NCBI GenBank assembly: GCA_019246795.1
Contig: JAFAPY010000210.1
Coordinates: 13,127 to 77,126, forward strand
Reading direction: 5' to 3'
Source of the DNA: Streptosporangiaceae bacterium
GTDB taxonomy: Bacteria; Actinomycetota; Actinomycetes; Streptosporangiales; Streptosporangiaceae
DNA length: 64,000 nt
A program made the position numbers and the translations under genes. Below, piece by piece: positions 4,279 to 53,218 of the stretch (position 1 is its first letter; every line of letters begins with the position of its first letter). Below the pieces are notes generated by a model, which was not told the origin of the DNA, did no database searches, and saw nothing but the letters and a program-made list of their open reading frames with translations.

Positions 4279-5175
4279 TCATACCGCGGCCGGCGAATCG
4301 CAGGGCTCGGCCGGATCGAGCAGGCGGTTTCTCAGGTGCGCCAGCGCCCGCGCGAGCAGCCTGGAGACGTGCATCTGGGAAATGCCCAGCCGCTCGCCGA
4401 TCTCGGTCTGGGTGAGGTTGCCGTAAAAGCGCATGACCAGGATCCGCTGCTCGCGTTCCGGCAGCTCGTCCCAGTGGGCGTTGACGGCTTCCATGTCGAT
4501 CGTGTGCGAGACGCCCGGGTCGTCGTCGCCGAGAATGTCCGCGAGCAGGGCCGGGTCGTCACGGTCCGACAGCGGCGCGTCAAGCGAGTACGTGCTGAAC
4601 ACCAGGTCCGCCTGGCGGGCCTCCAGCATGTCGTCCTGGCTGACGCCCAGCCGCTCGGCAAGCTCGTCCTCCGCGGGCGCCCGGCCGAGCTGCTGGGTCA
4701 GCTCCTCGTTGGCCTTGCGCAGTTCCAGCAGCAGCTCCTGGGCGGACCGGCGCACGTGGATCTGCCACCGCTTGTCACGGAAGTGGCGCTTGATCTCGCC
4801 GCTGACGCAGGGCTGGGCGTAGGCGGACAGGCTGTCGCCAACCTCCGGGTCGTAGTTGTTGATGGCCTTGAGCAGGCCGACGTACCCGACCTGCATGAGG
4901 TCCTCGGTGGGCTCCGGGCTGCCCCGGTACTGCCGCACGCAGGAGCGGACCAGCTTGGCGTAGCGCTCGACGAGGATCTCGCACGCAGCCGCGCGCAGCT
5001 CGCTGTCCCGCGGCAGCGCGCGCACCTTGGCCAGCAGCTCGTTATCTGACAGCTCCTTGAGCTGCGCCCGCGACCACGGCACCGCGTCGTCCCCGGTGCC
5101 GGATCCGGTGATGCCCGACGAGGGCTCCGCGGCGAGCGTTCGGCTCGCGCGGGCCCTGTGGGTTGCCTGCGTCAA
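4279..5175 (-). CDS. SigB/SigF/SigG-family RNA polymerase sigma factor
   Basis: Regions 2-4 recognisable (DLMQVGYVGLLKAINNYDPEVG, YAQPCVSGEIKRHFRDKRW, LTQTEIGERLGISQMHVSRLL). Proposed TTG start at 5175 has GAAGGAGAG 6 nt upstream. The ORF is open up to 5424, so the start is uncertain. Confidence 0.85.
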   Translation of the reverse strand: MTQATHRARASRTLAAEPSSGITGSGTGDDAVPWSRAQLKELSDNELLAKVRALPRDSELRAAACEILVERYAKLVRSCVRQYRGSPEPTEDLMQVGYVGLLKAINNYDPEVGDSLSAYAQPCVSGEIKRHFRDKRWQIHVRRSAQELLLELRKANEELTQQLGRAPAEDELAERLGVSQDDMLEARQADLVFSTYSLDAPLSDRDDPALLADILGDDDPGVSHTIDMEAVNAHWDELPEREQRILVMRFYGNLTQTEIGERLGISQMHVSRLLARALAHLRNRLLDPAEPCDSPAAV

Positions 5176-7045: not shown

Positions 7046-8469
7046 TGGCACTGCCTTTTCCGGATGGGCCTTCCCCGGACGGCCGGCTCCGGCTGACCGT
7101 GTTCGGCACTGGCTACCTGGGTACCGCACACGCGGCGTGCATGGCCGACGCCGGGTTCCACGTGCTCGGCGTGGACGCCGACCCGGCCAGGGTCAAGGAG
7201 CTGAGCGCCGGGGAGCCGGGGATATACGAGGCGGGCCTCGCGGTCCTGCTGCGGCGCGGGCTTGCGTCCGGGCGGCTGGCCTTCACCACGTCTTACCGGC
7301 GCGCCGCGGCGTTCGGCGACGTGCACTTCATCTGCGTCGGGACGCCGCAGCGCGCCGACGGCTCGGCCGCGGCCGAGCTGTCCCAGGTGGAAGCCTGCCT
7401 GGACACGCTGGCGCCGCTGCTGGACAAGCCGTGCCTGATCGTGGGCAAGTCCACCGTCCCGGTCGGCACGGCGGCCCGGCTCGCCCGTCGCGGACTGCCC
7501 GGCGGCGCCGAACTCGCCTGGAACCCGGAGTTCCTCCGCGAGGGGCACGCGGTGGCGGACACGCTGCGCCCGGACCGGATCGTGGCCGGAGTCGCCTCGG
7601 CCCGCGCGGAGGCGGTGCTGCGCCGCGTCTACTGGCGCCAGCTCATCGACGGCGTACCGTTCGTGGTGACCGATCTGGCCACCGCCGAGCTGGTCAAGCT
7701 GGCCGCCAACTCGTTCTTGGCGGCCAAGATCTCCTTCGTCAACGCCATGGCTGAGATCTGCGAGATCGTCGGCGCGGACTCCGCCATGCTGGCCCAGGCC
7801 CTCGGCTACGACCCGCGGATCGGCGGCTCCGCGCTGCGTCCCGGGCTCGGTTTCGGCGGCGGCTGCCTGCCTAAGGACACCCGGGCCTTCGCCGGCCAGG
7901 CCGCCGAGCTTGGCGCCGCGCAGCCTGCCGCCCTGCTGCGCTCCGTCGATGCCATCAACACCGGGCGGCGCGATCGCATGGTGCAGCTGGCGGCAGAACT
8001 GGCCGGCGGGTCGCTGGCCGGGACCCGGGTGGGCGTCCTCGGCCTGGCGTTCAAGCCGGGCACCGACGACATCAGGGACTCCCCGGCGATGGCGGTGGCG
8101 ACCGCGGTGAGCGACCTAGGCGCGCTGGTGACCGCCTTCGACCCGGCCGCGATGGACCGGGCGCGGGCGCAGCAGCCCCGGTTCCGCTACGCCCGCTCGG
8201 TGCTCGAGGCGGCGTGCGACGCGGACGTGCTGCTGGTGCTCACCGAATGGCCGCAGTTCGCCGCGGCCGACCCGTGTCAGCTGGCCGCCGTGGTGGCCAG
8301 GCGCAACGTCGCCGACGGGCGGCACGCGCTGGACCCGGCCCGCTGGCAGGCAGCCGGCTGGCGCTACCGCGCGCTGGGCCAGGGCCGCCCGCTGCACCCT
8401 CAGCGGCCGGCGAGCCAGCGTTCCATGCAGGCGAGCAGCTCCTCGGTGTCGACCGGCTTGGTCACGTAG
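7042..8469 (+). CDS. UDP-glucose/GDP-mannose dehydrogenase family protein (UDP-glucose 6-dehydrogenase-like)
   Basis: VFGTGYLGTAHAACMADAG Rossmann motif, catalytic GFGGGCLPKD, FKPGTDDIRDSP. GTG 7042 or ATG 7045 overlaps the upstream stop. The last ~25 codons overlap the convergent kinase gene. Confidence 0.85.
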   Translation: MMALPFPDGPSPDGRLRLTVFGTGYLGTAHAACMADAGFHVLGVDADPARVKELSAGEPGIYEAGLAVLLRRGLASGRLAFTTSYRRAAAFGDVHFICVGTPQRADGSAAAELSQVEACLDTLAPLLDKPCLIVGKSTVPVGTAARLARRGLPGGAELAWNPEFLREGHAVADTLRPDRIVAGVASARAEAVLRRVYWRQLIDGVPFVVTDLATAELVKLAANSFLAAKISFVNAMAEICEIVGADSAMLAQALGYDPRIGGSALRPGLGFGGGCLPKDTRAFAGQAAELGAAQPAALLRSVDAINTGRRDRMVQLAAELAGGSLAGTRVGVLGLAFKPGTDDIRDSPAMAVATAVSDLGALVTAFDPAAMDRARAQQPRFRYARSVLEAACDADVLLVLTEWPQFAAADPCQLAAVVARRNVADGRHALDPARWQAAGWRYRALGQGRPLHPQRPASQRSMQASSSSVSTGLVT

Positions 8470-11400
8470 TCGCTGGCGCCGGCCGCGATGCTCTTCTCCC
8501 GGTCGCCCGGCATGGCCCGGGCGGTCACCGCGATGATCGGCAGCGCCGCGAACGCGGGCATCTGCCGGATCTTGGTCATCGTCGCGTAGCCGTCCAGCTC
8601 CGGCATCATCACGTCCATCAGGATCAGGTCGGTGTCCTCGGCGGCAAGCAGCGCCTCGATGCCCTCGCGCCCGTTGGGCGCGTGGGTGACTGTCATACCC
8701 TGCAGCTCGAGCGTGCTGGTGATCGCGAACACGTTGCGCGGGTCGTCGTCGATTACCAGCACCCGCCTGCCGCGCAGCGCCTCGTGCCCGTCGGCCGCCG
8801 CGACGCGAAGGCCCGCGTCGGCATGCTCGCTGACCAGCGCGGGCACCTGCCCGGGCTGGGCCGCCGACAGGTGCAGGGTGATCCGCTCGCGCAGTTCGTC
8901 CAGCGAGGGCAGCAGCTCCAGCGGCCCGGAACCGAAACGCAGCCGGGCCAGCCGTCCCTGCGCGCTGTCCAGCTTGTCGCTGGCGTGGGCGAGCACCGGG
9001 ACGTCTCTCAGCTCGGGACAGCCCTCCAGCTGATCGAGGAAGGCCAACGCGGCCGCGCCCTGCTGGCCCAGGTCCACGACCACGCACTGGTGCGGCGCGG
9101 CGCGGAGCGCCTCGATGCCCTGCTGCGGGCTGACGGCCGTGCTGACCTGGACCGGGCCTCCCATGCCGCCCAGGTCAGAGACCGCGCTGTGCGTGAGCAG
9201 CGTGAGCAGCCCGCCGCGCGCGCCCTCGACCACGAGCACGCGCCGGCCTGGGATGGCACCCTCGCTGGCGCCGCCCGGCGTCGGCGGCTGCGTCGCCTGC
9301 GCCGCGCCGGCACTGCGTTGATCCGGTGGGGCGACCCTGCTGGCTCCCGGGAGGACTTCATCCCCCCGGAGCCCCCCGCTCACGAGGGGGCTGCCCGCCC
9401 CTCCGTTTCCCACTGGGGACAGCACGGCCGGAAGGTACAGCATGAAGGTGCTGCCCTTGCCCAGCTCGCTGCTCGCGGTGATCTCGCCGCCGAGCAGCGA
9501 GCCGACCTCGCGGGCGATGGACAGGCCCAGGCCGGTGCCGCCGTACCTGCGGCTGAGCGTGCCGTCGCCCTGCTGGAAGGCGCCGAAGATCGTGGTGAGG
9601 TTCTCCGGCGCGATGCCGATGCCGGTGTCGGTCACCGAGAACGCCACCATCGCGCCGCCGTCGCTGCCATGCCGGTCGGCGGGGCTGACCCGAAGCGCCA
9701 CGTGGCCGCGCCCGGTGAACTTGACCGCGTTCGACAGCAGGTTGCCGAGCACCTGGCGCAGCCGCTGCCGGTCGGTGACAAGTTCTGCCGGGGTCCCCGG
9801 CTCAGTTTCGACCGCGAACTGCAGGCCTTTTTCCGCGGTGAGCGGCTGGAAGGTGGCCTGGATGTCGTCCAGCAGGGCGCTGAGGCTGAACCGCTCCGCA
9901 TGGATGTCCAGTCGCCCTGCCTCGACCTTGGACAGGTCCAGGATGTCGTTGATGAGCTGGAGCAGGTCTGAGCCTGCCGAGTAGATGACGTTGGCGTACT
10001 CGACCTGCTTGGCGGTCAGGTTCCGGCCCGGATTCTGCGCCAGCAGCCGGGCCAGGATCAGCAGGCTGTTCAGCGGCGTGCGCAGTTCGTGGGACATGTT
10101 GGCCAGGAACTGCGACTTGTACTTCGACGCCAGCGCCAGCTGCCGGGCGCGCTCTTCGATCTCCTGCCTGGCCTGCTCGATCTCGGCGTTCTTCGTCTCG
10201 ATGTCCCGGTTCTGCGCGGCGAGCAGCGCTGCCTTGTCCCCGAGGTCGGCGTTGGACCACCGCAGCTCCTCCTGCTGCGCCTGCAACTCTTCGGAACGGG
10301 CCTGCAGCTCGGCGGCAAGCCGCTGCGACTCTCCGAGCAGCGCGTCGGTGCGCGCGTTGGCGATGATCGTGTTGAGGCTGACCCCGAGCGTCTCGGTCAG
10401 CTGCTCCAGGAAGTCGGTCTGCACCTGGGTGAAGGAGGTGAACGAGGCGAGCTCGATGACGCCGAGCACCTGGTCCTCGAACAGGATCGGCAAGATCGCC
10501 AGGTTGGCGGGAGTAGCCTCGCCGAGCCCGGAGGAGATCGTGATGTACCCCTCGGGGATGTCCGCCACGACGATGGACCGCTTGCTCCGGGCCACCTGCC
10601 CGATCAGGGACTGGCCGATCCGGTACTGGATCGGCGCGTCCTTGTCGGCGCGCAGCCCATAGCCGGCGATAAGGCGGAGGCTCCCCTCGCCGCCGGCCTG
10701 CTCGGCCAGGAAGAACGTGCCGTGCTGGGCCCCGACCAGCGGCGCGAGCTCCTCCATGATCAGCTCGGCGACGACGGCCAGGTCCCGGTGCCCCTGCATC
10801 ATGCCGGCGATCTGGGCCAGGTTGGTCTTCAGCCAGTCCTGCTGCTGGTTGGCCTGGATGTTCTCGCGCAGCGACGTGACCATCGCGTTGATGTTGTCCT
10901 TGAGCTCGGCGACCTCCCCCCGCGCCTCCACCGAGATGGAGCGGGTCAGGTCACCGGCGGCGACCGCGCTGGTCACCTCGGCGATCGCGCGCACCTGCCG
11001 GGTCAGGTTCCCGGCCAGCTCGTTCACGTTCTCGGTCAGCCGCTTCCAGGTGCCGGACACCCCTTCGACCTCGGCCTGGCCGCCCAGCCGCCCCTCGCTG
11101 CCGACCTCGCGGGCCACCCGGGTGACCTCCGCCGCGAACGCGGAGAGCTGGTCGACCATGGTGTTGATCGTCGTCTTCAGCTCCAGGATCTCGCCGCGCG
11201 CGTCCACGTCGATCTTCTTGGACAGGTCACCCTGCGCGACCGCGGTCGTGACCTGCGCGATGTTCCGCACCTGGCTGGTGAGGTTGTTCGCCATCGAGTT
11301 GACGTTGTCGGTGAGGTTCTTCCAGGTGCCCGCGACGCCCTTGACCTCGGCCTGGCCGCCCAGCCGTCCTTCGGTGCCGACCTCGCGGGCCACCCGGGTT

Positions 11401-12431
11401 ACCTCGTCGGCGAACGCGGACAGCGTGCCGACCATCCTGTTGATCGTCTGGGCCAGCGCGGCCACCTCGCCCTTGGCCTCGACGGTGATCTGCCGGGTCA
11501 GGTCGCCGCGCTCCACGGCGGTGGCCACCTGGGCGATGGACCGCACCTGGGCGGTCAGGTTGGACGCCATCACGTTGACGTTGTCGGTGAGATCCTTCCA
11601 GGTGCCGGACACCCCGCGGACCACGGCCTGGCCGCCGAGGTTGCCCTGGGTGCCGACCTCGCGGGCCACCCGGGTCACCTCGTCGGCGAACGCGGAGAGC
11701 TGGTCGACCATGGTGTTGATGGTCTCCTTCAGCTCCAGGATCTCGCCGCGGGCGTCGACCCGGATCTTCTGGCTCAGGTCACCCTTGGCCACCGCCGTGG
11801 TCACCTGCGCGATGGACCGTACCTGGGCGGTCAGGTTGGCCGCCATCACGTTGACGGACTCGGTGAGGTCCTTCCAGGTACCGGAGACGCCCTTGACGTC
11901 GGCCTGGCCGCCCAGCCGTCCTTCGGTGCCGACCTCGCGGGCCACCCGGGTCACCTCGTCGGCGAAGGAGGAAAGCTGGTCCACCATCGTGTTCAGGGTG
12001 GACTTCAGCTCCAGGATCTCGCCGCGCGCGTCCACGCCGATCTTCTGGCTCAGGTCGCCCCTGGCGACCGCGGTCGCCACCTGTGAGATGTTGCGGACCT
12101 GCGCGGTGAGGTTGCCTGCCATCGCGTTGACGGAGTCGGTGAGGTCCTTCCAGGTGCCGGACACCCCGGGGACGTAGGCCTGGCCGCCCAGTTTGCCCTC
12201 GGTGCCGACCTCGCGGGCCACCCGGGTCACCTCCGAGGTGAACAGGTCAAGCTGGTCCGCCATCCCGTTGAAGACCGTGGCGATCTCGTCCATCAGCGGG
12301 TCGCCGGTCTTGGCCAGGCGGGTGCTGAAGTCGCCGCCGCGGACCGCCGACAGCCCGGCGAGCAGCTGCTCCAGCCCTGACTCGTCAAGCCTCGGACCCG
12401 ACTGGACCGTATCAGTCACGAGCGCTCCCAT
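8400..12431 (-). CDS. Cytoplasmic poly-HAMP / GAF hybrid sensor histidine kinase with two C-terminal receiver domains
   Basis: No TM segment. About five 92-aa HAMP-pair repeats, then GAF. HisKA H-box ([15 protein letters not shown]), HATPase N/G boxes ([24 protein letters not shown]). A divergent REC, then a canonical REC ([13 protein letters not shown]...KP). Confidence 0.9.
10840..12250 (-). repeat. Tandem ~276-bp (92-aa) intragenic repeats encoding the HAMP array
   Basis: Unit [13 protein letters not shown](K/R)LGGQA.V.GV.GTWKDLT..VN.MA.NLT.QVR.IA.V..AVA.GDL..KI.V.A.GE...LK.T.N.MVDQLS.FA recurs five times plus a partial copy. Coordinates are approximate. Confidence 0.8.
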
Positions 12432-12445
12432 CTGTGTCTTCTACA

Positions 12446-12477
12446 CCGATGGTAGAACGGAAAGTAACTACCATTGG
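12446..12477. promoter_or_regulatory. Inverted repeat CCGATGGTAG-N12-CTACCATTGG between the divergent kinase and ANTAR-PP2C genes
   Basis: 10-bp arms with 1 mismatch in a 55-bp divergent intergenic region. Confidence 0.4.
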
Positions 12478-12486
12478 GCGGAACGG

Positions 12487-15006
12487 ATGCCGGTGACACC
12501 GCTCCGGACACCTTTTCCGGGCACGGGTCTCACGGGTCGAAGGCGGGTGATGATGGCGGCCGGCGACGACCAGGTGCGACGGCTGGCTGCGGTCATCGAC
12601 CGCCAGCGCCGCGAGCTCGACCGCCTGCGCGCCGAGGGCGGCCCCGACTCGGTCATCGCGATGGCCAGGGGAGCGCTGATGGAGCGGCTGGGCCTGTCCG
12701 CCGCAGAGGCAGCCCGCCAGCTCGCCGAGCTGTCCGAGGCGACCGGGACCCCGCTGGCCGAGATGGCGGCCACCGTGCTCGGCTCTGCGGAACCAGGCGG
12801 GAACGGGGAGCCAGGGGGGTCCGGGGGGATGGGTCCCCCCCAAGGGGGGTCCGGGGGGACGGGCAGTCCCCCCGGGAGCAGGGGGGGCCCAGGGGGGTTC
12901 GGGGGGACGGGCAGTCCCCCCCAAGGGGGGTCCGGGGGGATGGGTCCCCCCGGGAGCAGGGGAGGTCTGGGGGGGATCGTCACCCCGGGAAAACAGAGCG
13001 TGCTCGCCGAAGCCGCCGCGGAGACCGCGGCCGACGGCACGGAACTCGTCGGCATGCTGGCCGAACACGTGCTGCCCGGGGCGGGGGCCGACGCCGCGCT
13101 GTTGTGGCTGCTCCAGGCGGACGGGGCGCTGGAGCTGCTCGGCCAGGCGGGCCTGCCCAGCGGCGAGGTCAGCCGGTGGCGGCACGTGCCGCCGCAGCTC
13201 GACTGCCCGGCTCAGCGCGTCGCTCACGATGCCGCGGACCTGTGGTGGCATTCCGGCCGCCCGCGGCGCGACAGCGTACCGGTCGTCGGCCGCCCGGATG
13301 CCGCCAAGGCGGTCCTGGCACTGCGGGAGCCGACGGGCCAGCTGGTCGGCGTGCTCGAAGTGGCCTGGTCCGGGCCGCTGCCCGCGTTCGGCACCGAGGT
13401 CCGCCAGCGGCTGTCCGCGCTGGCGGACGGCTATGCGCGGGTCCTGGCCGCCCGGCTGGCACACGGCGACCTGGCGGCCGCGCAGCCCAAGGCGCCCCTG
13501 TTCACGCTGCTGGACAGCCTGGCCGATTCGGTGCTGGCCGCCGGGGCTATCAGGGACGATGCCGGGCAGGTGACCGACTTCCGCATCGAGCATGTCAGCC
13601 CGGGCTGTTACGACCCGGGGGGCCGCACGGAGACCGAGCTGGGCAGGCTCACGCTGCTGGAGGCGTATCCGCAGAGCGTGTCGGGGCAGGGCCTGTTCGC
13701 CCGGGCCGTGCAGGTGCTGGCCGACGGCGTGCCGCAGCATGTCCCCGGCGCGCTGGCCGGGCACGGGGGAAGCGGATCCACCCCGCTCGCCGACCTCCGC
13801 ATCGCCAGGTTCTTCGACGGGGTCATCGCCACCTGGCGCCGGGAACAGCCGGTCGGCCGGCTCGCCGTGCTCCATGACCACGCGCAGCGACTGGGGCGCC
13901 TGGGCGGCTGGGAGGAGAACCTGGTCACCGGCACCGTGAACTGGACCGAGTCGACGTTCGGCCTGTTCGGCCTGGCGCCGCGCCCCGGCGCGGAAATCCC
14001 GCTGGCGGAGCTGCACAGCTACGTGATAGCCGCCGACAAGCCCGCGATGCAGCGCTTCCGCCATGACCTGCTGGAGCAGCGCGAGACGCTGACCGCGACC
14101 TTCCGGGTGGTGCACCCCGAGGACCGCAGCATCCGGCAGATCCGGGTCTTCGCTGAGCCGGTCACCGACGGCTCAGGCACGCTGGTGGCGCTGCGCGGGG
14201 CGTTCCAGGATGTCTCGGCGCACTACCAGACCCAGGTCGCGCTGGCCGCAACCCGGGACCAGCTCGCGGACACCGAGCAGCGGGCCGCGGAGGAGCACTT
14301 GCTGGCGACGCGGCTGCAGCGGGCGATCATGCCGCCGGACGAGCCCCCGGCGGCGGCAGCCGGGATCGACGTCGCCGTCCGTTACCGGCCGGTCGGCGAG
14401 GGCCACCTGGTCGGCGGCGACTGGTACGACACGCTGCTGCTGCCGGGCAAGGGCGTGCTGCTCGCCGTCGGCGACGTGGCCGGCCACGGCATCGACGCGG
14501 TCACCGGCATGGTCGCGTCCCGCAACTCGCTGCGCGGCCTGGCCATCACCGGGACGGGCCCGGCCGAGCTGATCCGCATGCTCAACGGGATGACCTGCCA
14601 TCTCATCTCCGGAGTGGTCGGCACCGCGCTGTGCGGCATCTACGACCCGGCCGCCCGGGTGCTGCGCTGGGCCCGCGCCGGGCACCTGCCGCCGGTCCTG
14701 GTCCGGGCCGGGGCGGCCGCTGAGCTCCCGATGCCGGGCGGCGTGCTGCTCGGCATGGACCCGGACGCCGGCTACGAGGAGGCCGTGTGCTCGCTGCTGC
14801 CCGGCGACACGCTGCTGCTGTTCACCGACGGGCTCATCGAGCGGCGAGGGGAGCCAATCGACGACGTGCTCGGACAGTTCGCCGCGACGGTGGCCGCCGA
14901 CTCGGGCGGCGGGCTGACCGCCGCCGCCACGGCCGACCAAGTGCTGGCGCGTGCCGCCTCAGACACCGATGACGACGCCTGCCTGGTCGTGGTGCGCATC
15001 CTTTGA
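12487..15006 (+). CDS. ANTAR-domain / sensory (GAF/PAS-like) / PP2C (SpoIIE) phosphatase
   Basis: N-terminal coiled coil plus ANTAR motif (IAMARGALMERLGLSAAEAARQLAELSEATGTPLAEMA). Gly/Pro linker, then a PAS-like part (TVNWTESTFGLFGL...FRVVHPEDR). SpoIIE motifs (GGDWYD, VGDVAGHG, LFTDGLIERR, DDACLVV). ATG 12487 chosen because upstream codons overlap the kinase gene. Confidence 0.8.
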   Translation: MPVTPLRTPFPGTGLTGRRRVMMAAGDDQVRRLAAVIDRQRRELDRLRAEGGPDSVIAMARGALMERLGLSAAEAARQLAELSEATGTPLAEMAATVLGSAEPGGNGEPGGSGGMGPPQGGSGGTGSPPGSRGGPGGFGGTGSPPQGGSGGMGPPGSRGGLGGIVTPGKQSVLAEAAAETAADGTELVGMLAEHVLPGAGADAALLWLLQADGALELLGQAGLPSGEVSRWRHVPPQLDCPAQRVAHDAADLWWHSGRPRRDSVPVVGRPDAAKAVLALREPTGQLVGVLEVAWSGPLPAFGTEVRQRLSALADGYARVLAARLAHGDLAAAQPKAPLFTLLDSLADSVLAAGAIRDDAGQVTDFRIEHVSPGCYDPGGRTETELGRLTLLEAYPQSVSGQGLFARAVQVLADGVPQHVPGALAGHGGSGSTPLADLRIARFFDGVIATWRREQPVGRLAVLHDHAQRLGRLGGWEENLVTGTVNWTESTFGLFGLAPRPGAEIPLAELHSYVIAADKPAMQRFRHDLLEQRETLTATFRVVHPEDRSIRQIRVFAEPVTDGSGTLVALRGAFQDVSAHYQTQVALAATRDQLADTEQRAAEEHLLATRLQRAIMPPDEPPAAAAGIDVAVRYRPVGEGHLVGGDWYDTLLLPGKGVLLAVGDVAGHGIDAVTGMVASRNSLRGLAITGTGPAELIRMLNGMTCHLISGVVGTALCGIYDPAARVLRWARAGHLPPVLVRAGAAAELPMPGGVLLGMDPDAGYEEAVCSLLPGDTLLLFTDGLIERRGEPIDDVLGQFAATVAADSGGGLTAAATADQVLARAASDTDDDACLVVVRIL
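12805..12985 (+). repeat. G6-7/C6-8 homopolymer-rich duplicated ~60-bp segment encoding a Gly/Pro/Ser linker
   Basis: ggggggtccggggggatgggtccccccc / aaggggggtccggggggacgggcagtcccccc motifs occur twice. Encodes GGSGGMGPPQGGSGGTGSPPGSRGG... Confidence 0.8.
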
Positions 15007-15044: not shown

Positions 15045-16418
15045 TCACCCGGCGCGGGCGGCGGCGGAGGCTATGCCGGACGTGGAGCGGCCGCTCAGGT
15101 ACGGCACGGTGACCACCCGGCCGCCCCATTCCCGCAGCGCGGCCGCTTCCGGCAGGTCGCTGCCGTCGTAGTCGCCGCCCTTGACCCAGATGGCGGGCCG
15201 TAGCTGGCGCAGCAGCCGTTCCGGTGTGTCCTCCTCGAAGATGGCGACCTGGTCCACGCAATCCAGCGCGGCCAGCACCGCAGCCCGGTCGGCGGCAGGG
15301 ACGAGCGGCCGTCCGGGTCCCTTCAGCCGCCGCACCGAGTCGTCGGAGTTCATGCAGACCACAAGGCGGTCGCCCAGCGACCTGGCCGCACGCAGCATGC
15401 TCACGTGGCCGGCGTGCAGCACGTCGAAGCACCCGCCCGCCGCGACGAGCACGCCGCCCGCCGCCCGGATCGCCTCGGCCGCCTCCGCGGGGGAGGGCTC
15501 ACCGGACCAGCGTGCGCCCGGCGCCGGGCCCCCGGGCAGGCCGTGTACGCCTCCGCCCGCGAGATAGCCGGTGGCCGCGGCCACCGCTGCCGTGACCGCC
15601 TCGGACATGGTGGCGCCGTCCCGCAGCGCAGCCGCCGCAGCGGCCGCGAACTGGTCGCCCGCGCCGCATGGATCGCTGACCTGGATTGCTGCCGCCGGGA
15701 TCGCCAGCGGTGCCTGCCCGGCGCTGGCGAGCAGCGCGCCCCGGCCGCCAAGCGTCACCGCCAGCGACCGGACCGGCCAGCTGCCCAGCAGCCGCTCGGC
15801 GGCCGCCGCCGCCGGCAGCACCGCGCCCCTGGGATCGGGCAGCCCGCAGGCGCGCGCCGCTTCGGCGCCGTTCGGGGTGGCAAGCCAGGTCCCGGCTACC
15901 GGTGCCGTCCCCCGGGGATGCGGGTCCCAGACCAGGGGGACACGGCCCGCGCGGGCGGCCACCGCCTCCCGCAGCCGCGGATCGGCGCTGGTGCCGTGAC
16001 CGTAGTCGCTGACCAGGACCGCCCCGGCATCCATGATGGCCTCAGCCGCGCGGCGGCCGGCCCGGCCCGGCGTGCCTGCGGGCCTGTCCACCCGCAGCAG
16101 GGTCTGGCCCGCCGCGCGGATGCGCGTCTTTTCCTGCATCCCGCCGTCGAGCGGCAGCGGGATGACCGTCACCGTGCCCGGCAGCAGGTCCCGTGCCGCG
16201 GCGCTGGCCGGGTCACCGCCGAACGGCGCGATCAGCACGATCTCGCCGGCATCGCGCGCGGCCAGCAGCGCCGCGAGCGCGGCGCCGCCCGGGCGCAGCC
16301 GCTCGGCCGCGTCCTCGACCACCGGCACCGGGGCGTCGGGGCACAGCCGCCCGGCGTGCCCGGTGACGTCCCTGTCCAGCAGGGCGTCCCCGACGATCAC
16401 CAGCGGCCCGCTGCTCAT
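15045..16418 (-). CDS. hldE: Bifunctional D-beta-D-heptose 7-phosphate kinase / D-beta-D-heptose 1-phosphate adenylyltransferase
   Basis: N-terminal PfkB kinase domain (VVGDALLDRD..., DPCGAGDQF). C-terminal cytidylyltransferase domain (GGCFDVLHAGHVSML...NSDDSVRRLKG). ATG 16418 forms an ATGA overlap with the upstream stop. The 857-aa listed ORF is a composite. Confidence 0.9.
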   Translation of the reverse strand: MSSGPLVIVGDALLDRDVTGHAGRLCPDAPVPVVEDAAERLRPGGAALAALLAARDAGEIVLIAPFGGDPASAAARDLLPGTVTVIPLPLDGGMQEKTRIRAAGQTLLRVDRPAGTPGRAGRRAAEAIMDAGAVLVSDYGHGTSADPRLREAVAARAGRVPLVWDPHPRGTAPVAGTWLATPNGAEAARACGLPDPRGAVLPAAAAAERLLGSWPVRSLAVTLGGRGALLASAGQAPLAIPAAAIQVSDPCGAGDQFAAAAAAALRDGATMSEAVTAAVAAATGYLAGGGVHGLPGGPAPGARWSGEPSPAEAAEAIRAAGGVLVAAGGCFDVLHAGHVSMLRAARSLGDRLVVCMNSDDSVRRLKGPGRPLVPAADRAAVLAALDCVDQVAIFEEDTPERLLRQLRPAIWVKGGDYDGSDLPEAAALREWGGRVVTVPYLSGRSTSGIASAAARAG

Positions 16419-18070
16419 CGCTCCTCCCGCCGGTCCGGCCAGCTCGGAATGGCCCGGCCGCCCAGGATGGCGGACACCGCCTCGGCCAGGCTGGGCGCGC
16501 ACGGCGCCCCTGCCTTCTCCTCCGGCTTCGTCGCCGCCGTGGGGACCAGCACCGCCCTGGCCCCGGCGGCGCGGGCCGCAGCCACGTCGGCGCCGATGTC
16601 GCCGATGACCACGCATTCGGCCGCGGTCACGCCCAGCGCCGCCGCCGCCGCGGTGATCAGCCCGGGCGCCGGCTTCCTGCAGCCGCAGCGATCCTCGGGA
16701 CGGTGCGGGCACACCAGCCACACGGCGAACGGGCCGCACGCCGCGTCCACCTCGGCGTTGACCGCCGCGACCTGTGCCGGGGTGATCAGGCCGTGGCCGA
16801 CACCGGACTGGTTGGTCACCACGCCGACGCCGATCCCGGCCTGCCGCACGGCCGCGACCGCGTCCGCGGCGCCCGGCACGGGTTGCACCAGCGCCGGGTC
16901 GCCGTTGTACGGGACGTCGTGGACCAGGGTCCCGTCGCGGTCGAACAAGACCGCAGCCGGACGCGGCGGCCACGGCCGGGCATGCCGGAACCGCCGCAGC
17001 CCGGCCAGCCAGTGCCAGGTCGCCAGCGGCGGTATCACCACGCTGGTGACGATCATCGCGCCGGCTTCCGGCCAGGTCCGGGGCCCGGCAAGCACCCGCC
17101 GCGTGGCGAACTCGCCGGTGATCGCGGCCCAGCCCGCTGCCGCGGCGGCCGCGGCGGTGCTGGTCTGGGTCATCGGGCGGCCCCTGCGCCCCCGGGGGGT
17201 CGACCTCCCCAGGCCCCCTCGCAGGGTGCTGGCCCGGGGGGACGATCCCCTCCGGCCCTCCCGGCGGGGACGGCTGGCCGCCGCACACGCTATCGCGGCG
17301 GCAGCCAGCGCGCAGGCGGCCAGGTGAGCCGGGCGCCGACCCGGGCTGGCGCCCGCGCGCTCCCGCCAGCGCCGCCCGTGCAGCCGGAACATCGCCGCGT
17401 CGTCGGCGTTCCCCGCCTGCGCCGGGATGCTCGCCCACAGGCTCGGCGGGCGCACCGGGTGGCTGGTGCGCCGCGCGCCGCGGCGCAGCGACCAGCCCAG
17501 GCGCTGCAGCCGCAGCGCCAGGTCGCTGTCCTCGCGGTAGGCGCGGGGAAAGCGCTCGTCGAAGCCGCCGGCATCGGCGAGCGCCGCGCGCCGGTACGCC
17601 ATGTCGGCGGTGATCCACGATGCGCCGGCCAGCCCGAGGGTGGCCCGCTGCGAGTCCGCGGGCCTGCGGCCTTCCGGCCAGGGCACCTCGATGACCCCCT
17701 GCACTGCGGCCACGTCTGCGGGCACGTCCCGCAGGTCGTCGGCCAGCTCGTCCGCCCAGGCGGCCCCGACCTGCACGTCATCGTCGAGGAACACCACCCA
17801 CTCGGCGGGCGGCGCGGCGCGCCAGCCGGCGTTGCGGGCGGCGGCCGGCCCGCGGCCCTCCAGCGTGACGATCGTGGTGCGGCCGGCCAGCGGCTCGGGC
17901 AGCCGGGCCGGCAGCGGGTCGGCGGTGTCCTTCCTGTCGTCCGCGAGGACCAGCCCGGCAAGCGTGTCCACCTCGGCGGCGCCGACCGCGGCGCCGAGCG
18001 CGTCCAGGCACGCCTGCAGGCAGGGCCGGCCGATGGTGGGGATCACGCATACGTAACGTGGCGCGGTCAT
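16415..18070 (-). CDS. Fusion ORF: GT2 glycosyltransferase, hydrophobic linker, HAD-IIIA heptose 1,7-bisphosphate phosphatase (GmhB-like)
   Basis: N-terminal GT2 (VCVIPTIGRP...VFLDDDV). C-terminal HAD-IIIA motifs (VLFDRDGTLV, VVTNQSGV, CGCRKPAPG, IGD). No stop between the two halves across 551 codons. Confidence 0.75.
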   Translation of the reverse strand: MTAPRYVCVIPTIGRPCLQACLDALGAAVGAAEVDTLAGLVLADDRKDTADPLPARLPEPLAGRTTIVTLEGRGPAAARNAGWRAAPPAEWVVFLDDDVQVGAAWADELADDLRDVPADVAAVQGVIEVPWPEGRRPADSQRATLGLAGASWITADMAYRRAALADAGGFDERFPRAYREDSDLALRLQRLGWSLRRGARRTSHPVRPPSLWASIPAQAGNADDAAMFRLHGRRWRERAGASPGRRPAHLAACALAAAAIACAAASRPRREGRRGSSPRASTLRGGLGRSTPRGRRGRPMTQTSTAAAAAAAGWAAITGEFATRRVLAGPRTWPEAGAMIVTSVVIPPLATWHWLAGLRRFRHARPWPPRPAAVLFDRDGTLVHDVPYNGDPALVQPVPGAADAVAAVRQAGIGVGVVTNQSGVGHGLITPAQVAAVNAEVDAACGPFAVWLVCPHRPEDRCGCRKPAPGLITAAAAALGVTAAECVVIGDIGADVAAARAAGARAVLVPTAATKPEEKAGAPCAPSLAEAVSAILGGRAIPSWPDRREER

Positions 18071-18081
18071 CGGGCCCGCTG

Positions 18082-18106
18082 CTACCCGGGGCGCGCACGT
18101 GCAAAC
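18082..18106 (-). promoter_or_regulatory. SigB/SigF-type promoter GTTT-N15-GGGTAG, 11 nt upstream of the ATG at 18070 (leaderless-type)
   Basis: Minus strand reads GTTTGCACGTGCGCGCCCCGGGTAGCAGCGGGCCCGATG. Same architecture as the promoters at 33325-33349 and 33515-33538. Confidence 0.6.
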
Positions 18107-18155
18107 AGCCGTTCTTACGTTTGAACTCGTCCTTTCTCAGCAAGTAACACAGGTG

Positions 18156-19159
<1,004 letters not shown>

Positions 19160-19163
<4 letters not shown>

Positions 19164-30380: not shown

Positions 30381-31057
30381 CCGGGTCCCCCCTCTCCTGG
30401 CGTGCCGTCCCGTACCGCGGCCGCCCGCGCGTCGAACGCCAGGCAGATCAGGTGCAGCGCGACCTCGTGCGCTTCTTGTACCGTCGCGGTCTGCGCCGGC
30501 GCGGCGCCGGCGCAGCGCACGCACACCGCCTCGTCGCAGGCGTCGGCCAGCGGGTTCGGCGCCGGGCCGGTCAGCGCCCAGGCTGCGAGGCCGAGCTGGC
30601 GCGCCGCGCCGACTGCGCGCAGCAGGTTCTGGCTGCGCCCGGAGGTGGACATCGTCAGCAGCACGTCGCCGGGCCTGCCGTGCCCGAGTACCTGCCGGGC
30701 GAAGACCTCGGAGTAGCCGTAGTCGTTGGCGATCGCGGTCACCGCAGAGGTATCGGCGTGCAGCGCTATCGCCGAGTACGGCCTCCGGTCGGCGGCGAAC
30801 CTGCCGGTGAACTCGGCCGTCAGGTGCTGCGCCTGCGCCGCCGATCCGCCGTTGCCGGCCACCAGCAGCCGCCCGCCGCGGCCGAGGATCACCGCCAGCC
30901 GCCGGCCCCAGTCATCGAGCAGCCGGGTGTCCAGCCCGGCCAGCGCACGGACGAGCGCCCCGATGTGCCGCTGGGCCGTGCTCGCGGCCGCGGCGCCGTT
31001 CGGGGGTGCGGCGCCGTTCGGCGGCGCGGCGCTGTTCGGGGGCGCGGCGCTGTTCAT
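30377..31057 (-). CDS. gmhA: SIS-domain phosphoheptose isomerase
   Basis: LLVAGNGGSAAQAQHLTAEF, ALHADTSAVTAIANDYGY, LLTMSTSGRSQN. ATG 31057 in an ATGA overlap with the upstream GT4 stop. Confidence 0.85.
   Translation of the reverse strand: MNSAAPPNSAAPPNGAAPPNGAAAASTAQRHIGALVRALAGLDTRLLDDWGRRLAVILGRGGRLLVAGNGGSAAQAQHLTAEFTGRFAADRRPYSAIALHADTSAVTAIANDYGYSEVFARQVLGHGRPGDVLLTMSTSGRSQNLLRAVGAARQLGLAAWALTGPAPNPLADACDEAVCVRCAGAAPAQTATVQEAHEVALHLICLAFDARAAAVRDGTPGEGGPG
30987..31056 (-). repeat. 18-bp tandem repeat (about 4 copies) encoding (N-S/G-A-A-P-P)n at the GmhA N-terminus
   Basis: gcggcgc(c/t)gttcgg(g/c) units on the plus strand. Protein reads MNSAAPPNSAAPPNGAAPPNGAA. Confidence 0.75.
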
Positions 31058-32283
31058 GCGCGGAGCTCCGGCAGCACCGGCACCACCAGGCTGCGCGCGC
31101 TCGTGCCGGCGTACGCGTCCAGGGCGTCGCTGACCACGCGGTCCATCGCGTACCGCGCCGAGGCGCGGGCCCGCCCGGCGGCGCCCATGCTGCGCCGCAG
31201 CCCGGGATCGGCGAGCAGCCTCCGGATAGCGGCGGCCACCAGGTCGGGGCGGCGGGGCGGCACGTGGATCCCGGTCACCCCGTTGACCACGCTGTCCGAC
31301 AGGCCGCCGACCGCCGAGACGACCACGGGAAGACCGCACGCCATCGCCTCCACCGCCGCGATGCCGAACGGCTCGTACCACGGCACGCAGACCACCGCGT
31401 CCGCGGAGCGGTACAGCCCGGGCAGCACCGACCGGTTCACCCGGCCGAGGAGCCGGACCCGGTTGCTGACGCCGAGCGCATCGGCGAGATCGCGCAGCCG
31501 GCTCACGTCCCGGTCCAGGTGCAGCTCGGCGGGGGCCGGGCCGCCGGCGATGACGAGCTCGGCGCCGGGCAGCTCGGCCAGCGCCGAGATGGTGTTGCCG
31601 ATGCCCTTGCGCTGCACCAGCCTGCCGACATACAGCAGCCGGTGGGGCGCCGTGCGCGGCACGGCCGTACAGGCGGGTCCCTGCGGCGTGTAGTGGCCGA
31701 CGTCGACGCCGCACGGGATCACCACGACCCGGCTGGTGTCGGCGCCCAGCCTGGTCAGCTCGACCACCTCATCGGGGCAGGTGGCCACGATCCTGTCGGC
31801 GTCTTGCAGCAGGCTGGTCTCGATGGCGATCCGCTGCGGCGGCGAGGTGTCCAGCACCCCCTGCTCGCGCCGCTTGACCACGCCGAGCGCATGGAAGGTG
31901 TGCAGCACCGGGATGCCCAGCGGCCGCGCCGCGCGCACCGAGGCATACCCGGACATCCAGAAGTGGGAGTGCACCACGTCTGGCCGGTCCAGCGACCACT
32001 GCCGGTACAGGTCGGCGGCGAACTCGTCCATGTACGGCAGCAGCAGGTCCTTGCACATCGGCTCCGGCGGACCCGCGCTGACGTGGTCGACCGTCACCCC
32101 GGGCCCCAGCGGTACCCGGCGCGGCATGCCGAGGTCGTCACGGCGGGTGTGCACCACGACCTCATGGCCCCGTTCGGCCAGCCCGGCCGCCAGGGCGGCC
32201 ACGTGCACGTTCTGGCCGCCCGCATCGGCGCCGCCCAGCACCGCCAGCGGGCTGGCGTGCTCGGAGACAATCGCGATCCTCAT
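31054..32283 (-). CDS. GT4-family glycosyltransferase (MshA-like fold)
   Basis: MRIAIVSEHASPL...GGQNVHVAALA. EX7E region (YEPFGIAAVEAMACGLPVV). ATGA overlaps at both ends. Confidence 0.85.
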   Translation of the reverse strand: MRIAIVSEHASPLAVLGGADAGGQNVHVAALAAGLAERGHEVVVHTRRDDLGMPRRVPLGPGVTVDHVSAGPPEPMCKDLLLPYMDEFAADLYRQWSLDRPDVVHSHFWMSGYASVRAARPLGIPVLHTFHALGVVKRREQGVLDTSPPQRIAIETSLLQDADRIVATCPDEVVELTRLGADTSRVVVIPCGVDVGHYTPQGPACTAVPRTAPHRLLYVGRLVQRKGIGNTISALAELPGAELVIAGGPAPAELHLDRDVSRLRDLADALGVSNRVRLLGRVNRSVLPGLYRSADAVVCVPWYEPFGIAAVEAMACGLPVVVSAVGGLSDSVVNGVTGIHVPPRRPDLVAAAIRRLLADPGLRRSMGAAGRARASARYAMDRVVSDALDAYAGTSARSLVVPVLPELRA

Positions 32284-33314
32284 CCGGCCGCCATCCCCGC
32301 CGCCTCCACCGCGGCAACCCCTGCGAGCGCCCGCACCGCCTCGGTCACCTGGGCCGCGGTGATCCCGGCCAGGCACGGGTGGCCGGGCACGGGGCATTGC
32401 CGGGCCCGGGATCCGGCGCACGGCGCGTCCTGGTCGCCGAGCACCACCGCCGGGACCAGCCAGGGGCGCCAGCGCTCCAGCGGGACCGTGGGCGCGAACA
32501 GCGACACGACCGGGGTGCCGACCGCCGCCGCCAGGTGCGCTGGCCCGGTGTTGCCGGTCACCACCGCGGCGGCGCCCGCGATGACCGAGGCGAGCTGGGC
32601 CAGGCTGGTCTGGCCGCCGAGGTCGGTGCCGTGCTCTCCGGCCACCGCGGCGGTCAGCGCTCGTTCCGCTGGCGAGCCGGTGACCAGCACATGCCAGCCG
32701 TCCCGGGCCAGCGCGGCGACGAAGCCCGAGGCGTGCCCGGGCAGCGGCGCCCGCGCGGGCACCGAGGCACCCGGGTGCACCACCACGTACCGGCCGCCGG
32801 GCAGTCCGCTGACCGGGGGGAGCGGCGAGCGCAGCCGCAGCCGCCGGTCGGCGGGCGGCGGGAAGCCGGCGGCCTGCGCGACCGACAGCATCCGCTCCAC
32901 CTCGTGCAGGCCGCCGGCCGGCAGCCGGTGCCGCACGTCGAGCAGCGAGCCCGGGTAGTCCTCCGGCGCCGCGGTGATATGCGGCACCCCGGCGAGCCGC
33001 AGCAGGAGCGCGGTCGGCAGCGGATCCTGGTGGTAGGAGGTAAGGATGACCGCCTGGTCGGCGCGCTGTGCCCGGATCGCGTCCGCGGCCCGCAGCACGT
33101 CCTGCCGCAGCACCGGCCCCGGCTCGGGGTCCACCCAGGGGCACTGCCAGGTCAGCACCGTGTCCACGCCGGGCAGCAGCCGGGCCGCCGGCAGTCCCCG
33201 TGGCCCCGCGAGCAGCACGACACGGTCCGCGCCCGCGGCCACCGCCCGGACCGCCGGGCCGGCCAGCAGAACATCGCCCGTGCTGTCCAGCCGGACGACA
33301 ACTACGCTCGGCAT
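32280..33314 (-). CDS. GT9-family glycosyltransferase (heptosyltransferase-like), first gene of a 7-gene operon
   Basis: VVVRLDSTGDVLLAGPAVRAV, GNTGPAHLAAAVGTPVV. ATG 33314 lies 10 nt downstream of GGGTAG. The listed 565-aa ORF is over-extended. Confidence 0.85.
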   Translation of the reverse strand: MPSVVVVRLDSTGDVLLAGPAVRAVAAGADRVVLLAGPRGLPAARLLPGVDTVLTWQCPWVDPEPGPVLRQDVLRAADAIRAQRADQAVILTSYHQDPLPTALLLRLAGVPHITAAPEDYPGSLLDVRHRLPAGGLHEVERMLSVAQAAGFPPPADRRLRLRSPLPPVSGLPGGRYVVVHPGASVPARAPLPGHASGFVAALARDGWHVLVTGSPAERALTAAVAGEHGTDLGGQTSLAQLASVIAGAAAVVTGNTGPAHLAAAVGTPVVSLFAPTVPLERWRPWLVPAVVLGDQDAPCAGSRARQCPVPGHPCLAGITAAQVTEAVRALAGVAAVEAAGMAAG

Positions 33315-33324
33315 GCGGCGGGGG

Positions 33325-33349
33325 CTACCCAGCACCAGGAACCGGAAAC
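33325..33349 (-). promoter_or_regulatory. SigB/SigF-type promoter GTTT-N15-GGGTAG, 10 nt upstream of the ATG at 33314
   Basis: Minus strand reads GTTTCCGGTTCCTGGTGCTGGGTAGCCCCCGCCGCATG. Confidence 0.6.
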
Positions 33350-33350
33350 A

Positions 33351-33364
33351 CTTTGAGCTCAAAG
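33351..33364. promoter_or_regulatory. Perfect 14-bp palindrome CTTTGAGCTCAAAG abutting the -35 element
   Basis: Read directly. AT-richer than its surroundings. Confidence 0.5.
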
Positions 33365-33371
33365 ATGCGGC

Positions 33372-33462
33372 GCCCCAGCTCGCCGCCGACGCCCAGCTCT
33401 CCGCCGGCGCCCAGCTCTCCGCCGGCGCCCAGCTCTCCGTCGGCGCCCAGCTCTCCGCGGGC
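33372..33462. repeat. Five tandem 18-bp repeats (gcccagctctccgccggc) in the divergent promoter region
   Basis: Units at 33372, 33391, 33409, 33427 and 33445. Copies 2 and 3 are identical; the others differ by 1-3 nt. Confidence 0.85.
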
Positions 33463-33514
33463 GCCGTGGCGTCGCCGCGTGCCGCGCCGTGACCGCAAAC
33501 TGCCGCGCCGGCGG

Positions 33515-33538
33515 GTTTCGCCTCCGGCCAGTGGGTAC
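33515..33538 (+). promoter_or_regulatory. SigB/SigF-type promoter GTTT-N14-GGGTAC, 10 nt upstream of the ATG at 33549
   Basis: GTTTCGCCTCCGGCCAGTGGGTACCCGCACTGGCATG. Confidence 0.6.
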
Positions 33539-33548
33539 CCGCACTGGC

Positions 33549-34136
33549 ATGTCCGTTCTCGCTGACGTCAAATCCCGGCTGGCCGGCCTGGCCCGTTCGG
33601 AGACCGATCGCTACGGCGGCGACGAGGAGCGCCCGCTCGGCGGCTACCTGGGCACGATGGCCGCCTACAGCGCGGTCGTGGCCGCGCTGGCCGGGGTGAC
33701 CCGGGCCACCAGGCGCGACATCCCCGACGCCCTCGGCGCCAGGGATATGGTGCTGTACGCCGTGGCGACCCACAAGCTGAGCAGGCTGCTGACCAAGGAT
33801 TCTGTGACCAGCCCGCTGCGCGCGCCCTTTACCTCCTACCGCGGCACCCAGGGGCCGGCGGAGCTCAAGGAAGAGGTGCGCGGGCACGGAGCGCAGAAGG
33901 CGATCGGCGAGCTGATCACCTGCCCGTTCTGCACCAGCGTCTGGGTGGCCACCGGCCTGATGGCCGGGCTCATCCACCTGCCGCGGACCACCAGGCTCGC
34001 CATCGACACCCTGGCCGCGACCGCCGGCGCCGACATGCTGCAGTTCGGCTACGCCTGGCTGGAGAAGGCGTCGTCGTTACCCGCGCCGGGCGTCAGCTTC
34101 CCGCGGCGGCCTGCCTGGCCACGACGAGATCGCTGA
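33549..34136 (+). CDS. DUF1360-domain membrane protein
   Basis: LYAVATHKLSRLLTKDSVTSPLRAPF...ELITCPFCTSVWVA signature. ATG 33549 is internal to the listed ORF. Confidence 0.75.
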   Translation: MSVLADVKSRLAGLARSETDRYGGDEERPLGGYLGTMAAYSAVVAALAGVTRATRRDIPDALGARDMVLYAVATHKLSRLLTKDSVTSPLRAPFTSYRGTQGPAELKEEVRGHGAQKAIGELITCPFCTSVWVATGLMAGLIHLPRTTRLAIDTLAATAGADMLQFGYAWLEKASSLPAPGVSFPRRPAWPRRDR

Positions 34137-34695: not shown

Positions 34696-34789
34696 GGGAT
34701 GGCTCTACCCGGTGCCGCCGTTCCCACGCCCGCCAGGTGGTGTAGCCAGCCAGGCCCTGGGTAACCGGCGGGCACCGAAGGAGGGAACG

Positions 34790-35194
34790 ATGCCCAAGAC
34801 CACCAAGAGCGGCAAGCCGCGCGAAGAGGAACTGCCCGGCACGCTGCAGCGCTCGCCCGAAAAGGCGCAGCGGACCTTCGCCAAGGCCCACGACAGCGCG
34901 GTGGACAGCTACGGCGAGGGGGAGCGGGCGCACCGGGTCGCCTTTTCGGCGGTCAAGCACACGTTCCAGAAGGTCGGCGACCACTGGGAGCCCAAGGGTC
35001 ACAAGGGGCCGTCCGACGAGAGGGCGAAGAATCCCAGGGCCCGGCAGAACCGCGGCAGGACCGCGGGCGGCGTGGACGTCGAGGGCAGCTCCAGGCAGGA
35101 ACTGCTGGACCGTGCCGCCAAGCTCGGCATCCGCGGCCGCTCGAAGATGACCAAGCAGGAACTGGGCGAGGCCATCGCCCGCAAGCAGGACTGA
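34790..35194 (+). CDS. ChaB-like protein with C-terminal Rho-N/SAP-like domain
   Basis: [47 protein letters not shown] (ChaB) and [29 protein letters not shown] (Rho_N). GGAGGG RBS. Confidence 0.75.
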
Positions 35195-49056: not shown

Positions 49057-49115
49057 GATGGGCACTGTTGCGCCAATCATGCCCGCAGGGGGACACTGTT
49101 GCGCCAACCATGCCC
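49057..49115 (-). repeat. Two tandem 31-bp units of the GGG..TTGGCGCAAC....CCC hairpin repeat, locus E (inverted relative to locus D)
   Basis: gggcactgttgcgccaatcatgccc and ggggacactgttgcgccaaccatgccc between the convergent ABC permease and acyl-CoA dehydrogenase genes. Confidence 0.7.
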
Positions 49116-49132
49116 TCAGGAGGACGCCGCGG

Positions 49133-52747: not shown

Positions 52748-53218
52748 ATGAGCGCGCAGCGAATCAATCCGGCAGAACTCGGCCGACCCTCCGGCTTCGC
52801 GCACGCGGTATCGGTGACCGCGAGCCGGATGGTGTTCCTCGCGGGCCAGACCGCGCACGACGGTGAAGGGAAGATCGTCGCCGGGGGAGTGGTGGCCCAG
52901 TTCGAGCGGGCGCTGGGCAACCTGCTCACCGCGCTCGCCGCGGCGGGCGGGCGCCCCGGCGACCTGGTCAGCCTGACCGTCTACCTCACCGACATCGACG
53001 CCTACCAGGCACACAGCCGCCAGATCGGCGCGGTCTGGCGGCGCCTGGCCGGGACCGAGTATCCCGCCATGGCCGCCGTCGCGGTATCGCGGCTGTGGGA
53101 CCCCGAGGCTCTGATCGAGATCCAGGGTATCGCCGCGCCTGCTGGCTTAGCAGGTGTGGTTACCCCCCGGAAACGGGGGGTAACCACGCTTCTGATCGGC
53201 GGTCCGTTCAGGCGGTGA
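52748..53218 (+). CDS. RidA/YjgF-family protein with an unusual ~25-aa C-terminal extension
   Basis: FAHAVSV...VFLAGQTA...AMAAVAVSRLWDPEALIEIQGIA is the normal family end. The ORF continues through the hairpin at 53156-53187 to 53218. Confidence 0.8.
   Translation: MSAQRINPAELGRPSGFAHAVSVTASRMVFLAGQTAHDGEGKIVAGGVVAQFERALGNLLTALAAAGGRPGDLVSLTVYLTDIDAYQAHSRQIGAVWRRLAGTEYPAMAAVAVSRLWDPEALIEIQGIAAPAGLAGVVTPRKRGVTTLLIGGPFRR
53156..53187. terminator. Perfect 14-bp stem with GAAA tetraloop between convergent RidA and hsp20 genes
   Basis: GTGGTTACCCCCCG-GAAA-CGGGGGGTAACCAC. Confidence 0.6.

Follow-up and report, generated by a model that had tools for sequence, protein, structure and literature searches.

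Conserved SigB/SigF-type promoter motifs directly precede a heptosyltransferase-family operon and a DUF1360 gene in an uncultured actinomycete

The spacer between the GT9 gene and the DUF1360 gene carries two back-to-back promoters, and the comparative data strongly support the interpretation that these are genuine and evolutionarily conserved promoters of the SigB/SigF type. The spacer covers the 234 bp between the two start codons (33315-33548; positions refer to the window, the whole 64-kb stretch of DNA that was analysed). On the minus strand, the promoter of the GT9 operon (33325-33349) is made up of the -35 element GTTT (33349-33346), a 15-nt spacer and the -10 hexamer GGGTAG (33330-33325), and the ATG of GT9 (33314-33312) begins 10 nt past the hexamer. 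On the plus strand, the DUF1360 promoter (33514-33538) is made up of GGTTT (33514-33518), a 14-nt spacer and GGGTAC (33533-33538), and the ATG (33549-33551) is again 10 nt away. An earlier note on this DNA had claimed GTTT-N15-GGGTAG-N10-ATG in front of the GT9 operon and GTTT-N14-GGGTAC-N10-ATG in front of the DUF1360 gene, and both were located where it had placed them. No sigma-70-type promoter was detectable across the intergenic region, no terminators were found in it, and Rfam covariance models gave no match at E <= 1 against positions 33150-33750.

Two further features lie between the promoters. The first is the A/T-rich palindrome CTTTGAGCTCAAAG (33351-33364), a candidate operator. It is perfect and 14 bp long, as claimed, but does not touch the -35 element of the operon promoter, since one base intervenes. 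The second is a tandem repeat of the 18-bp unit GCCCAGCTCTCCGCCGGC (33368-33465), of which five copies had been reported and for which TRF gives a period of 18, 5.4 copies and 91% matches.

The motif GTTT-N14-17-GGGTA is found three times in the window against 0.13 expected, an enrichment of about 23-fold, and three matches were attained in 0 of 100 shuffled windows. All three are positioned 10-11 nt upstream of the ATG of a gene. The third match, GTTT-N15-GGGTAG on the minus strand (18083-18106), is 11 nt before the ATG at 18070 of a gene for a GT2-GmhB fusion.

The short boxes are conserved in position while spacers and neighbouring genes vary, and the two promoters were judged functional for this reason. 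In counts that overstate the number of independent observations, many of the relatives being metagenomic and phylogenetically close, GTTT-N15-GGGTAG-N9-11-ATG was found in six of six distinct loci with GT9 as first gene and with unrelated spacers (L001, L002 and L171-L174); GGGTA(G/A) was found in all 36 distinct orthologous upstream regions of DUF1360 whose proteins align from residue 1, at a distance of 9 nt from the ATG in 9 cases and of 10 nt in 27, with GGTTT at equal spacing in 30 of the regions; and GTTT-N15-GGGTAG-N9-12-ATG/GTG was found in all four relatives of the GT2-GmhB operon, which have three different upstream neighbours. GGGTAG is still present, further upstream, in more distant DUF1360 orthologues, and in three loci (L004, L024 and L051) the motif stands before a HAD gene that heads the operon there. 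No strict motif was found within 4 kb upstream of the Streptomyces orthologues of the GT9 operon, and the putative regulon would therefore be restricted to a clade.

The pairing of the two genes is not shared by the relatives. GT9 was found beside DUF1360 in none of the 80 genome loci, nor in the closer metagenome relatives. Relatives with 77-82% GT9 identity have the same five-gene operon, with a PF07332 membrane-protein gene as divergent neighbour, and DUF1360 orthologues with 74-76% identity follow an Mrp antiporter operon at a gap of 36-43 nt and still have the promoter. In L171-L176, the PF07332 (Phage_holin_3_6 family) gene opposite GT9 is preceded by a conserved GTTT-N15-CGGTAG and a leader with a Shine-Dalgarno sequence. 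Similar promoters thus form a divergent pair there too, with another partner gene.

The GT9 gene (32280-33314, minus strand) belongs to the heptosyltransferase family (Pfam PF01075, E = 1e-25), with matches to the NCBIfam heptosyltransferase models that are below the model cutoffs. It is the first gene of an operon that continues on the same strand with genes assigned by Pfam/NCBIfam to a GT4 (32283-31054), the sedoheptulose-7-phosphate isomerase GmhA (31057-30377), an SDR (30380-29637) and a carbamoyltransferase (about 29620-27968). Overlaps of stop and start codons take the form ATGA/GTGA, and the gene order GT9-GT4-GmhA-SDR-carbamoyltransferase is repeated in L171-L174. The DUF1360 gene (33549-34136, plus strand; Pfam PF07098, E = 1e-34) encodes a membrane protein of 195 amino acids, for which a search found 4284 homologues.

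The steps of ADP-heptose synthesis that are missing from the GT9 operon are supplied by the operon behind the third promoter (15045-18070, minus strand). According to Pfam/NCBIfam it contains the GT2-GmhB fusion gene, with a part resembling HAD-IIIA heptose bisphosphate phosphatases (18070-16415), and an HldE-like heptose kinase/adenylyltransferase gene (16427-15045). Going by these assignments, GmhA, HldE and GmhB together with the heptosyltransferase, spread over two operons, make up a complete ADP-heptose route plus transferases. Since both heptose operons and DUF1360 have one promoter type and the pathway is complete, the three promoters appear to form a single regulon. The gene for a PfkB-family sugar kinase (18099-19163, plus strand) diverges from the third promoter over a gap of about 90 bp and may belong with the heptose cluster as a further gene for sugar activation.

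A fourth candidate promoter, GTGT-N15-GGGTAA (34740-34764, plus strand), was observed before a ChaB/Rho_N gene (34790-35194). It is followed by a 25-nt leader with the Shine-Dalgarno sequence aaggaggg. The GGGTAA box upstream of ChaB is kept in L086-L089, where the -35 element is GATT.

The start codons of GT9 and DUF1360 are fixed by the coinciding N-termini of their homologues. For all 80 GT9 homologues from GTDB species genomes the alignment starts at query residue 1-5, and the closer metagenome homologues have the N-terminus MxxVLVVRLDSxGDVLL. For the DUF1360 orthologues it begins at residue 1 (MSV...), and the gap between the -10 hexamer and the ATG is invariably 9-10 nt. The hexamers in the window are only 10 nt from the ATG, too close for a Shine-Dalgarno sequence, and nothing like GGAGG occurs in the two gaps, cccccgccgc and ccgcactggc. 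Judged from this spacing, from which the transcription starts were deduced, both mRNAs would be leaderless or near-leaderless. This had been claimed before, and the comparative evidence and published regulons lend it strong support. At both promoters, the A of the start codon falls on nucleotide 11 downstream of the hexamer. A gap of 10 nt is near the upper limit of those published, which makes a leader of 1-3 nt and a true +1 AUG equally likely.

The window also encodes a sigma factor of the SigB/SigF/SigG family (4279-5175, minus strand). It scores 253.9 bits with TIGR02980, against a cutoff of 234.35, and the Sigma70 regions r2, r3 and r4 were all found. A gene for a PAS-GAF-PP2C (SpoIIE-domain) phosphatase, of the type that feeds partner-switching cascades, is located at 1916-3805 on the plus strand. 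The sigma factor is a candidate for the cognate one, and paralogues elsewhere in the genome may serve instead. In actinomycetes there are usually several SigB/F paralogues, whose specificities overlap (PMC8346170), and the sigma factor encoded in the window may therefore not be the one used.

The two promoters belong to a class that is already well described, and the GGGTAG variant is no departure from it. Both spacers and both hexamers agree with published regulon motifs, which bears out the fit to the SigB/SigF consensus proposed in the earlier note. The SigF promoters of M. smegmatis and M. tuberculosis (GTTT-N14-19-GGGTA) have the same -35 element, -10 element and spacer length as found here. 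In a study of an M. smegmatis sigF mutant, many down-regulated genes had GTTT-N15-16-GGGTA 8-11 nt from the start codon, for example MSMEG_0521 and MSMEG_1758, and the GT2 gene MSMEG_1097 had the variant GTGT-N15-GGGTT at 11 nt (PMC4694148, Table 1). The M. smegmatis regulon thus shares the short gaps between motif and start codon, and its members include a GT2 glycosyltransferase and conserved hypothetical proteins. In M. smegmatis, GGGTA also serves as the -10 motif at 56 mapped transcription starts that hypoxia induces (PMC6448022). Mycobacterial SigF is under partner switching, and the window likewise has a PP2C phosphatase gene. The differences are that the host here is an uncultured actinomycete, with Streptosporangiaceae/Trebonia-like MAGs as nearest relatives, that the transcription starts are predicted, and that ADP-heptose operons and DUF1360 were not found tied to SigF in the literature searched. 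Nothing specific was found in the literature that links DUF1360 or heptose genes with SigF/SigB, and the nearest hint is a salt-induced heptosyltransferase in Frankia.

The promoters of the SigB homologues of S. coelicolor (GNNT/GTTT-N12-15-GGGTA[C/T/G]) share the hexamers, the -35 element and the sigma family TIGR02980 with the window. For nine such homologues the promoters include GTTT...GGGTAG and GGGTAC, and the S1-mapped starts are 8-11 nt after the hexamer (PMC8346170, Table 2). As several S. coelicolor paralogues cross-recognise these promoters, they cannot be assigned to any one sigma factor. The Streptomyces GT9 orthologues examined are located inside an operon, unlike the GT9 gene of the window, which is the first in its operon.

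The classical description of leaderless mRNAs in Actinomycetota concerns housekeeping TANNNT promoters. As in those mRNAs, the start codon here is an ATG and the -10 element is too near it for a 5' UTR or a Shine-Dalgarno sequence. The promoter here differs in being of the alternative-sigma type, and such cases have been documented in M. smegmatis also.

The 18-bp array was compared among the independent metagenome contigs L081-L085, which encode an identical DUF1360 protein. Four of these (L081-L084) span the array. Together with the window they have three alleles, with five units in the window and L084, four in L083 and five reordered units in L081 and L082; the reordered allele is consistent with unequal exchange. 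Across about 150 bp of flanking intergenic sequence only 2 SNPs were found among the strains, and both promoters and the palindrome are identical. The comparison of copy number in related strains that the earlier note had proposed accordingly gave 4 or 5 copies, with varying unit order. Because copy number and order differ among near-identical strains, the array is best read as a hypervariable minisatellite, and it is lineage- or strain-specific. The repeat is absent from the relatives examined (83% GT9 identity or below), and elsewhere in the window the unit has chance-level matches with 3 mismatches only. Both promoters point away from the array, which is transcribed by neither. The unit contains the self-complementary CGCCGGCG (GCCGGC, GGCGCC), which accounts for the plus-strand fold z-score of -3.2. 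Like the VNTRs of M. tuberculosis (MIRU-VNTR; promoter repeats), the array is an intergenic head-to-tail minisatellite with strain-variable copy number, but in the M. tuberculosis cases a promoter sequence is inside the repeated unit, while here the unit has no promoter motif and is placed between two promoters (PMC12817950).

The palindrome is statistically unusual only marginally, and the case for it is weaker than that for the promoter motif. The window has 29 perfect 14-bp palindromes against about 16 expected. No second copy of CTTTGAGCTCAAAG was found in the window with up to 3 mismatches. A partly similar sequence, GAGTTCAAAC, upstream of the promoter at 18 kb is at a different distance and was judged a chance resemblance. 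Upstream of GT9 in L001, L002 and L171-L176 the palindrome is absent, with other sequence in its place, and it is absent upstream of every DUF1360 orthologue examined. It is invariant in five strain contigs, which are near-identical overall. The comparisons lend no support to it, and it is kept as a candidate operator. The description of the spacer in the earlier note as a dense, clearly non-random regulatory architecture was thus not upheld: the juxtaposition, the palindrome and the repeats are not conserved, the array is polymorphic and the palindrome is marginal.

Other readings of the spacer were weighed against the one given above. The promoter-like motifs could be chance matches or dead relics, the genes being read from other signals, as the consensus is short, with 9 specified bases, and the promoters are predicted here from sequence. 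This is scarcely credible given the enrichment with three of three matches just before start codons, the motif position kept in dozens of orthologous regions though spacers and neighbours differ, and the lack of an alternative promoter of the sigma-70 type. That the repeats are coding is also very improbable. They would then give GT9 an (APAESW)n extension at its N-terminus or encode a small plus-strand protein, with an ORF of 59 aa for (AQLSAG)n (33313-33492) and one of 66 aa for (PSSPPA)n (33365-33565). The GT9 frame is stop-free through the repeats, the unit has 100% third-position G+C in the +AQLSAG and -PAESWA frames, the 59-aa ORF was called on L081 by JGI's gene caller, and other repeats in the window with a period divisible by three are coding (for example at the N-terminus of GmhA). 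The GT9 frame has, however, no ATG, GTG or TTG from the repeats to the start of DUF1360, and the start would have to be antisense inside DUF1360. The homologues share one N-terminus, as the 80 from genomes and all closer ones from metagenomes begin at MxxVLVVRLDS, directly after the conserved promoter. An N-terminal extension through the repeats, which the earlier note had considered, was rejected on these observations. The plus-strand ORFs, including that called by JGI, have no promoter, ribosome-binding site or Pfam match. Their starts would lie within or across the GT9 start codon, they would extend over both promoters, and they find no support in conservation, the repeat being absent from all relatives.

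A regulatory role for the sequence between the promoters is a somewhat less remote alternative. The palindrome may be the operator of a dimeric transcription factor acting on one or both promoters, with the spacing or phase of the operator relative to the DUF1360 promoter set by the repeat array. This is regarded as unlikely. The palindrome is perfect and A/T-rich in a genome of 73% G+C, with 0.07 such 14-bp palindromes expected per window, it lies 1 nt upstream of the GT9 -35 element and is unchanged in the five strain contigs, and a variable repeat copy number could in principle tune the spacing. Against this, both palindrome and repeat are absent upstream of GT9 at 70-83% identity and of all DUF1360 orthologues, the palindrome has no second copy in the window even when 3 mismatches are allowed, its invariance says little among strains that are near-identical overall, the repeat unit has no promoter-like motif, and a period of 18 bp is not a whole number of helical turns. 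It is more doubtful still that the minisatellite acts as a phase-variable spacer, where gain or loss of units would alter the distance and helical phase from a palindrome-bound regulator, or from the GT9 promoter complex, to the DUF1360 promoter. If this were true, it would give heritable, reversible cell-to-cell differences in stress-induced surface heptose glycosylation in a Gram-positive actinomycete.

The explanation of two SigB/SigF/SigG-type promoters with leaderless mRNAs, a regulon of heptose genes and DUF1360, and lineage-specific spacer DNA is, as a whole, considered probable. RNA polymerase with a group 3 sigma factor of the SigB/SigF/SigG family, controlled by partner switching, would read both promoters, and transcription of both genes would start at the A of the ATG or a few nucleotides from there. 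The leftward transcript would carry the translationally coupled GT9, GT4, GmhA, SDR and carbamoyltransferase genes and the rightward transcript the gene for the DUF1360 membrane protein, while the third promoter (18106-18083) would drive GT2-GmhB and HldE. When the sigma factor is released, as may happen in stress, stationary phase or development, DUF1360 and the whole pathway for synthesis and transfer of ADP-heptose would be switched on. The approximately 165 bp between the two -35 elements would be outside the transcripts of both promoters. The minisatellite most likely has no sequence-specific function, and the palindrome is possibly an operator.

These promoters leave the current understanding of promoter types unchanged. 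The predicted regulon would assign a Gram-positive ADP-heptose glycosylation pathway and a widespread membrane protein, DUF1360, the functions of which are poorly understood, to the regulon of a sigma factor for stress or development, in a clade of uncultured actinomycetes. The DUF1360 promoter, invariant across dozens of lineages, is a lead on when DUF1360 is needed. One promoter type before both halves of the heptose pathway predicts a heptose-containing surface glycoconjugate that is made on demand. The two genes would also provide a clear-cut case of an alternative-sigma promoter that gives leaderless mRNA.

In the DUF1360 upstream regions of L086-L128 (window 33508-33529), the -35 sequence GGTTTCG is flanked by a short inverted repeat, with stems of up to 7-9 bp and sequences that differ between lineages. 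The mean stem was 4.97 against 4.26-4.48 in shuffled or permuted controls (P ~0.001-0.004, for sequences that are related). A covarying hairpin was rejected, as the excess is weak and the stem of the window itself, 5 bp, is at the null level. The inverted repeat may be the terminator of an upstream co-directional operon that overlaps the promoter.

Tandem repeats were observed at several other places. A second 18-bp repeat of about 4 copies is located at the GT4/GmhA junction (30989-31067, minus strand), where it encodes the low-complexity N-terminus (NSAAPP)n of GmhA; its unit is unrelated to the intergenic one. In L001 (3721-3822), the 13-bp unit GCGCGAACACGAA, unrelated to the 18-bp unit, is repeated about 6 times some 170-245 bp upstream of the GT9 -35 element. 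Because an unrelated tandem repeat is found in this equivalent region, the data suggest that long upstream spacers tolerate slippage-prone DNA. In L002, where 3703-3757 and 3400-3545 were noted, there are two direct copies of GGGGCCARATGCGCCARCGGCCCC, and the upstream co-directional gene resembles an anti-sigma-factor antagonist of the STAS type, as seen from the C-terminal sequence alone.

Elsewhere in the window, TRF found a 276-bp repeat of 4.7 copies (10946-12233) inside a 1347-codon ORF on the minus strand (8400-12440), and a G-rich 78-bp repeat of 2 copies (12811-12979) in the N-terminal region of a PP2C-domain ORF (12193-15006). A 31-bp direct repeat (49063-49125) has 2 copies that are 90% identical; it falls between two ORFs that end at 49029 and 49133, in what looks like intergenic DNA. 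At 53145-53195 there is a strong inverted repeat rich in G/C, GGTTACCCCCCG-(tttc)-CGGGGGGTAACC. It has one relaxed match to the promoter motif on each strand and resembles an intergenic hairpin rather than a promoter.
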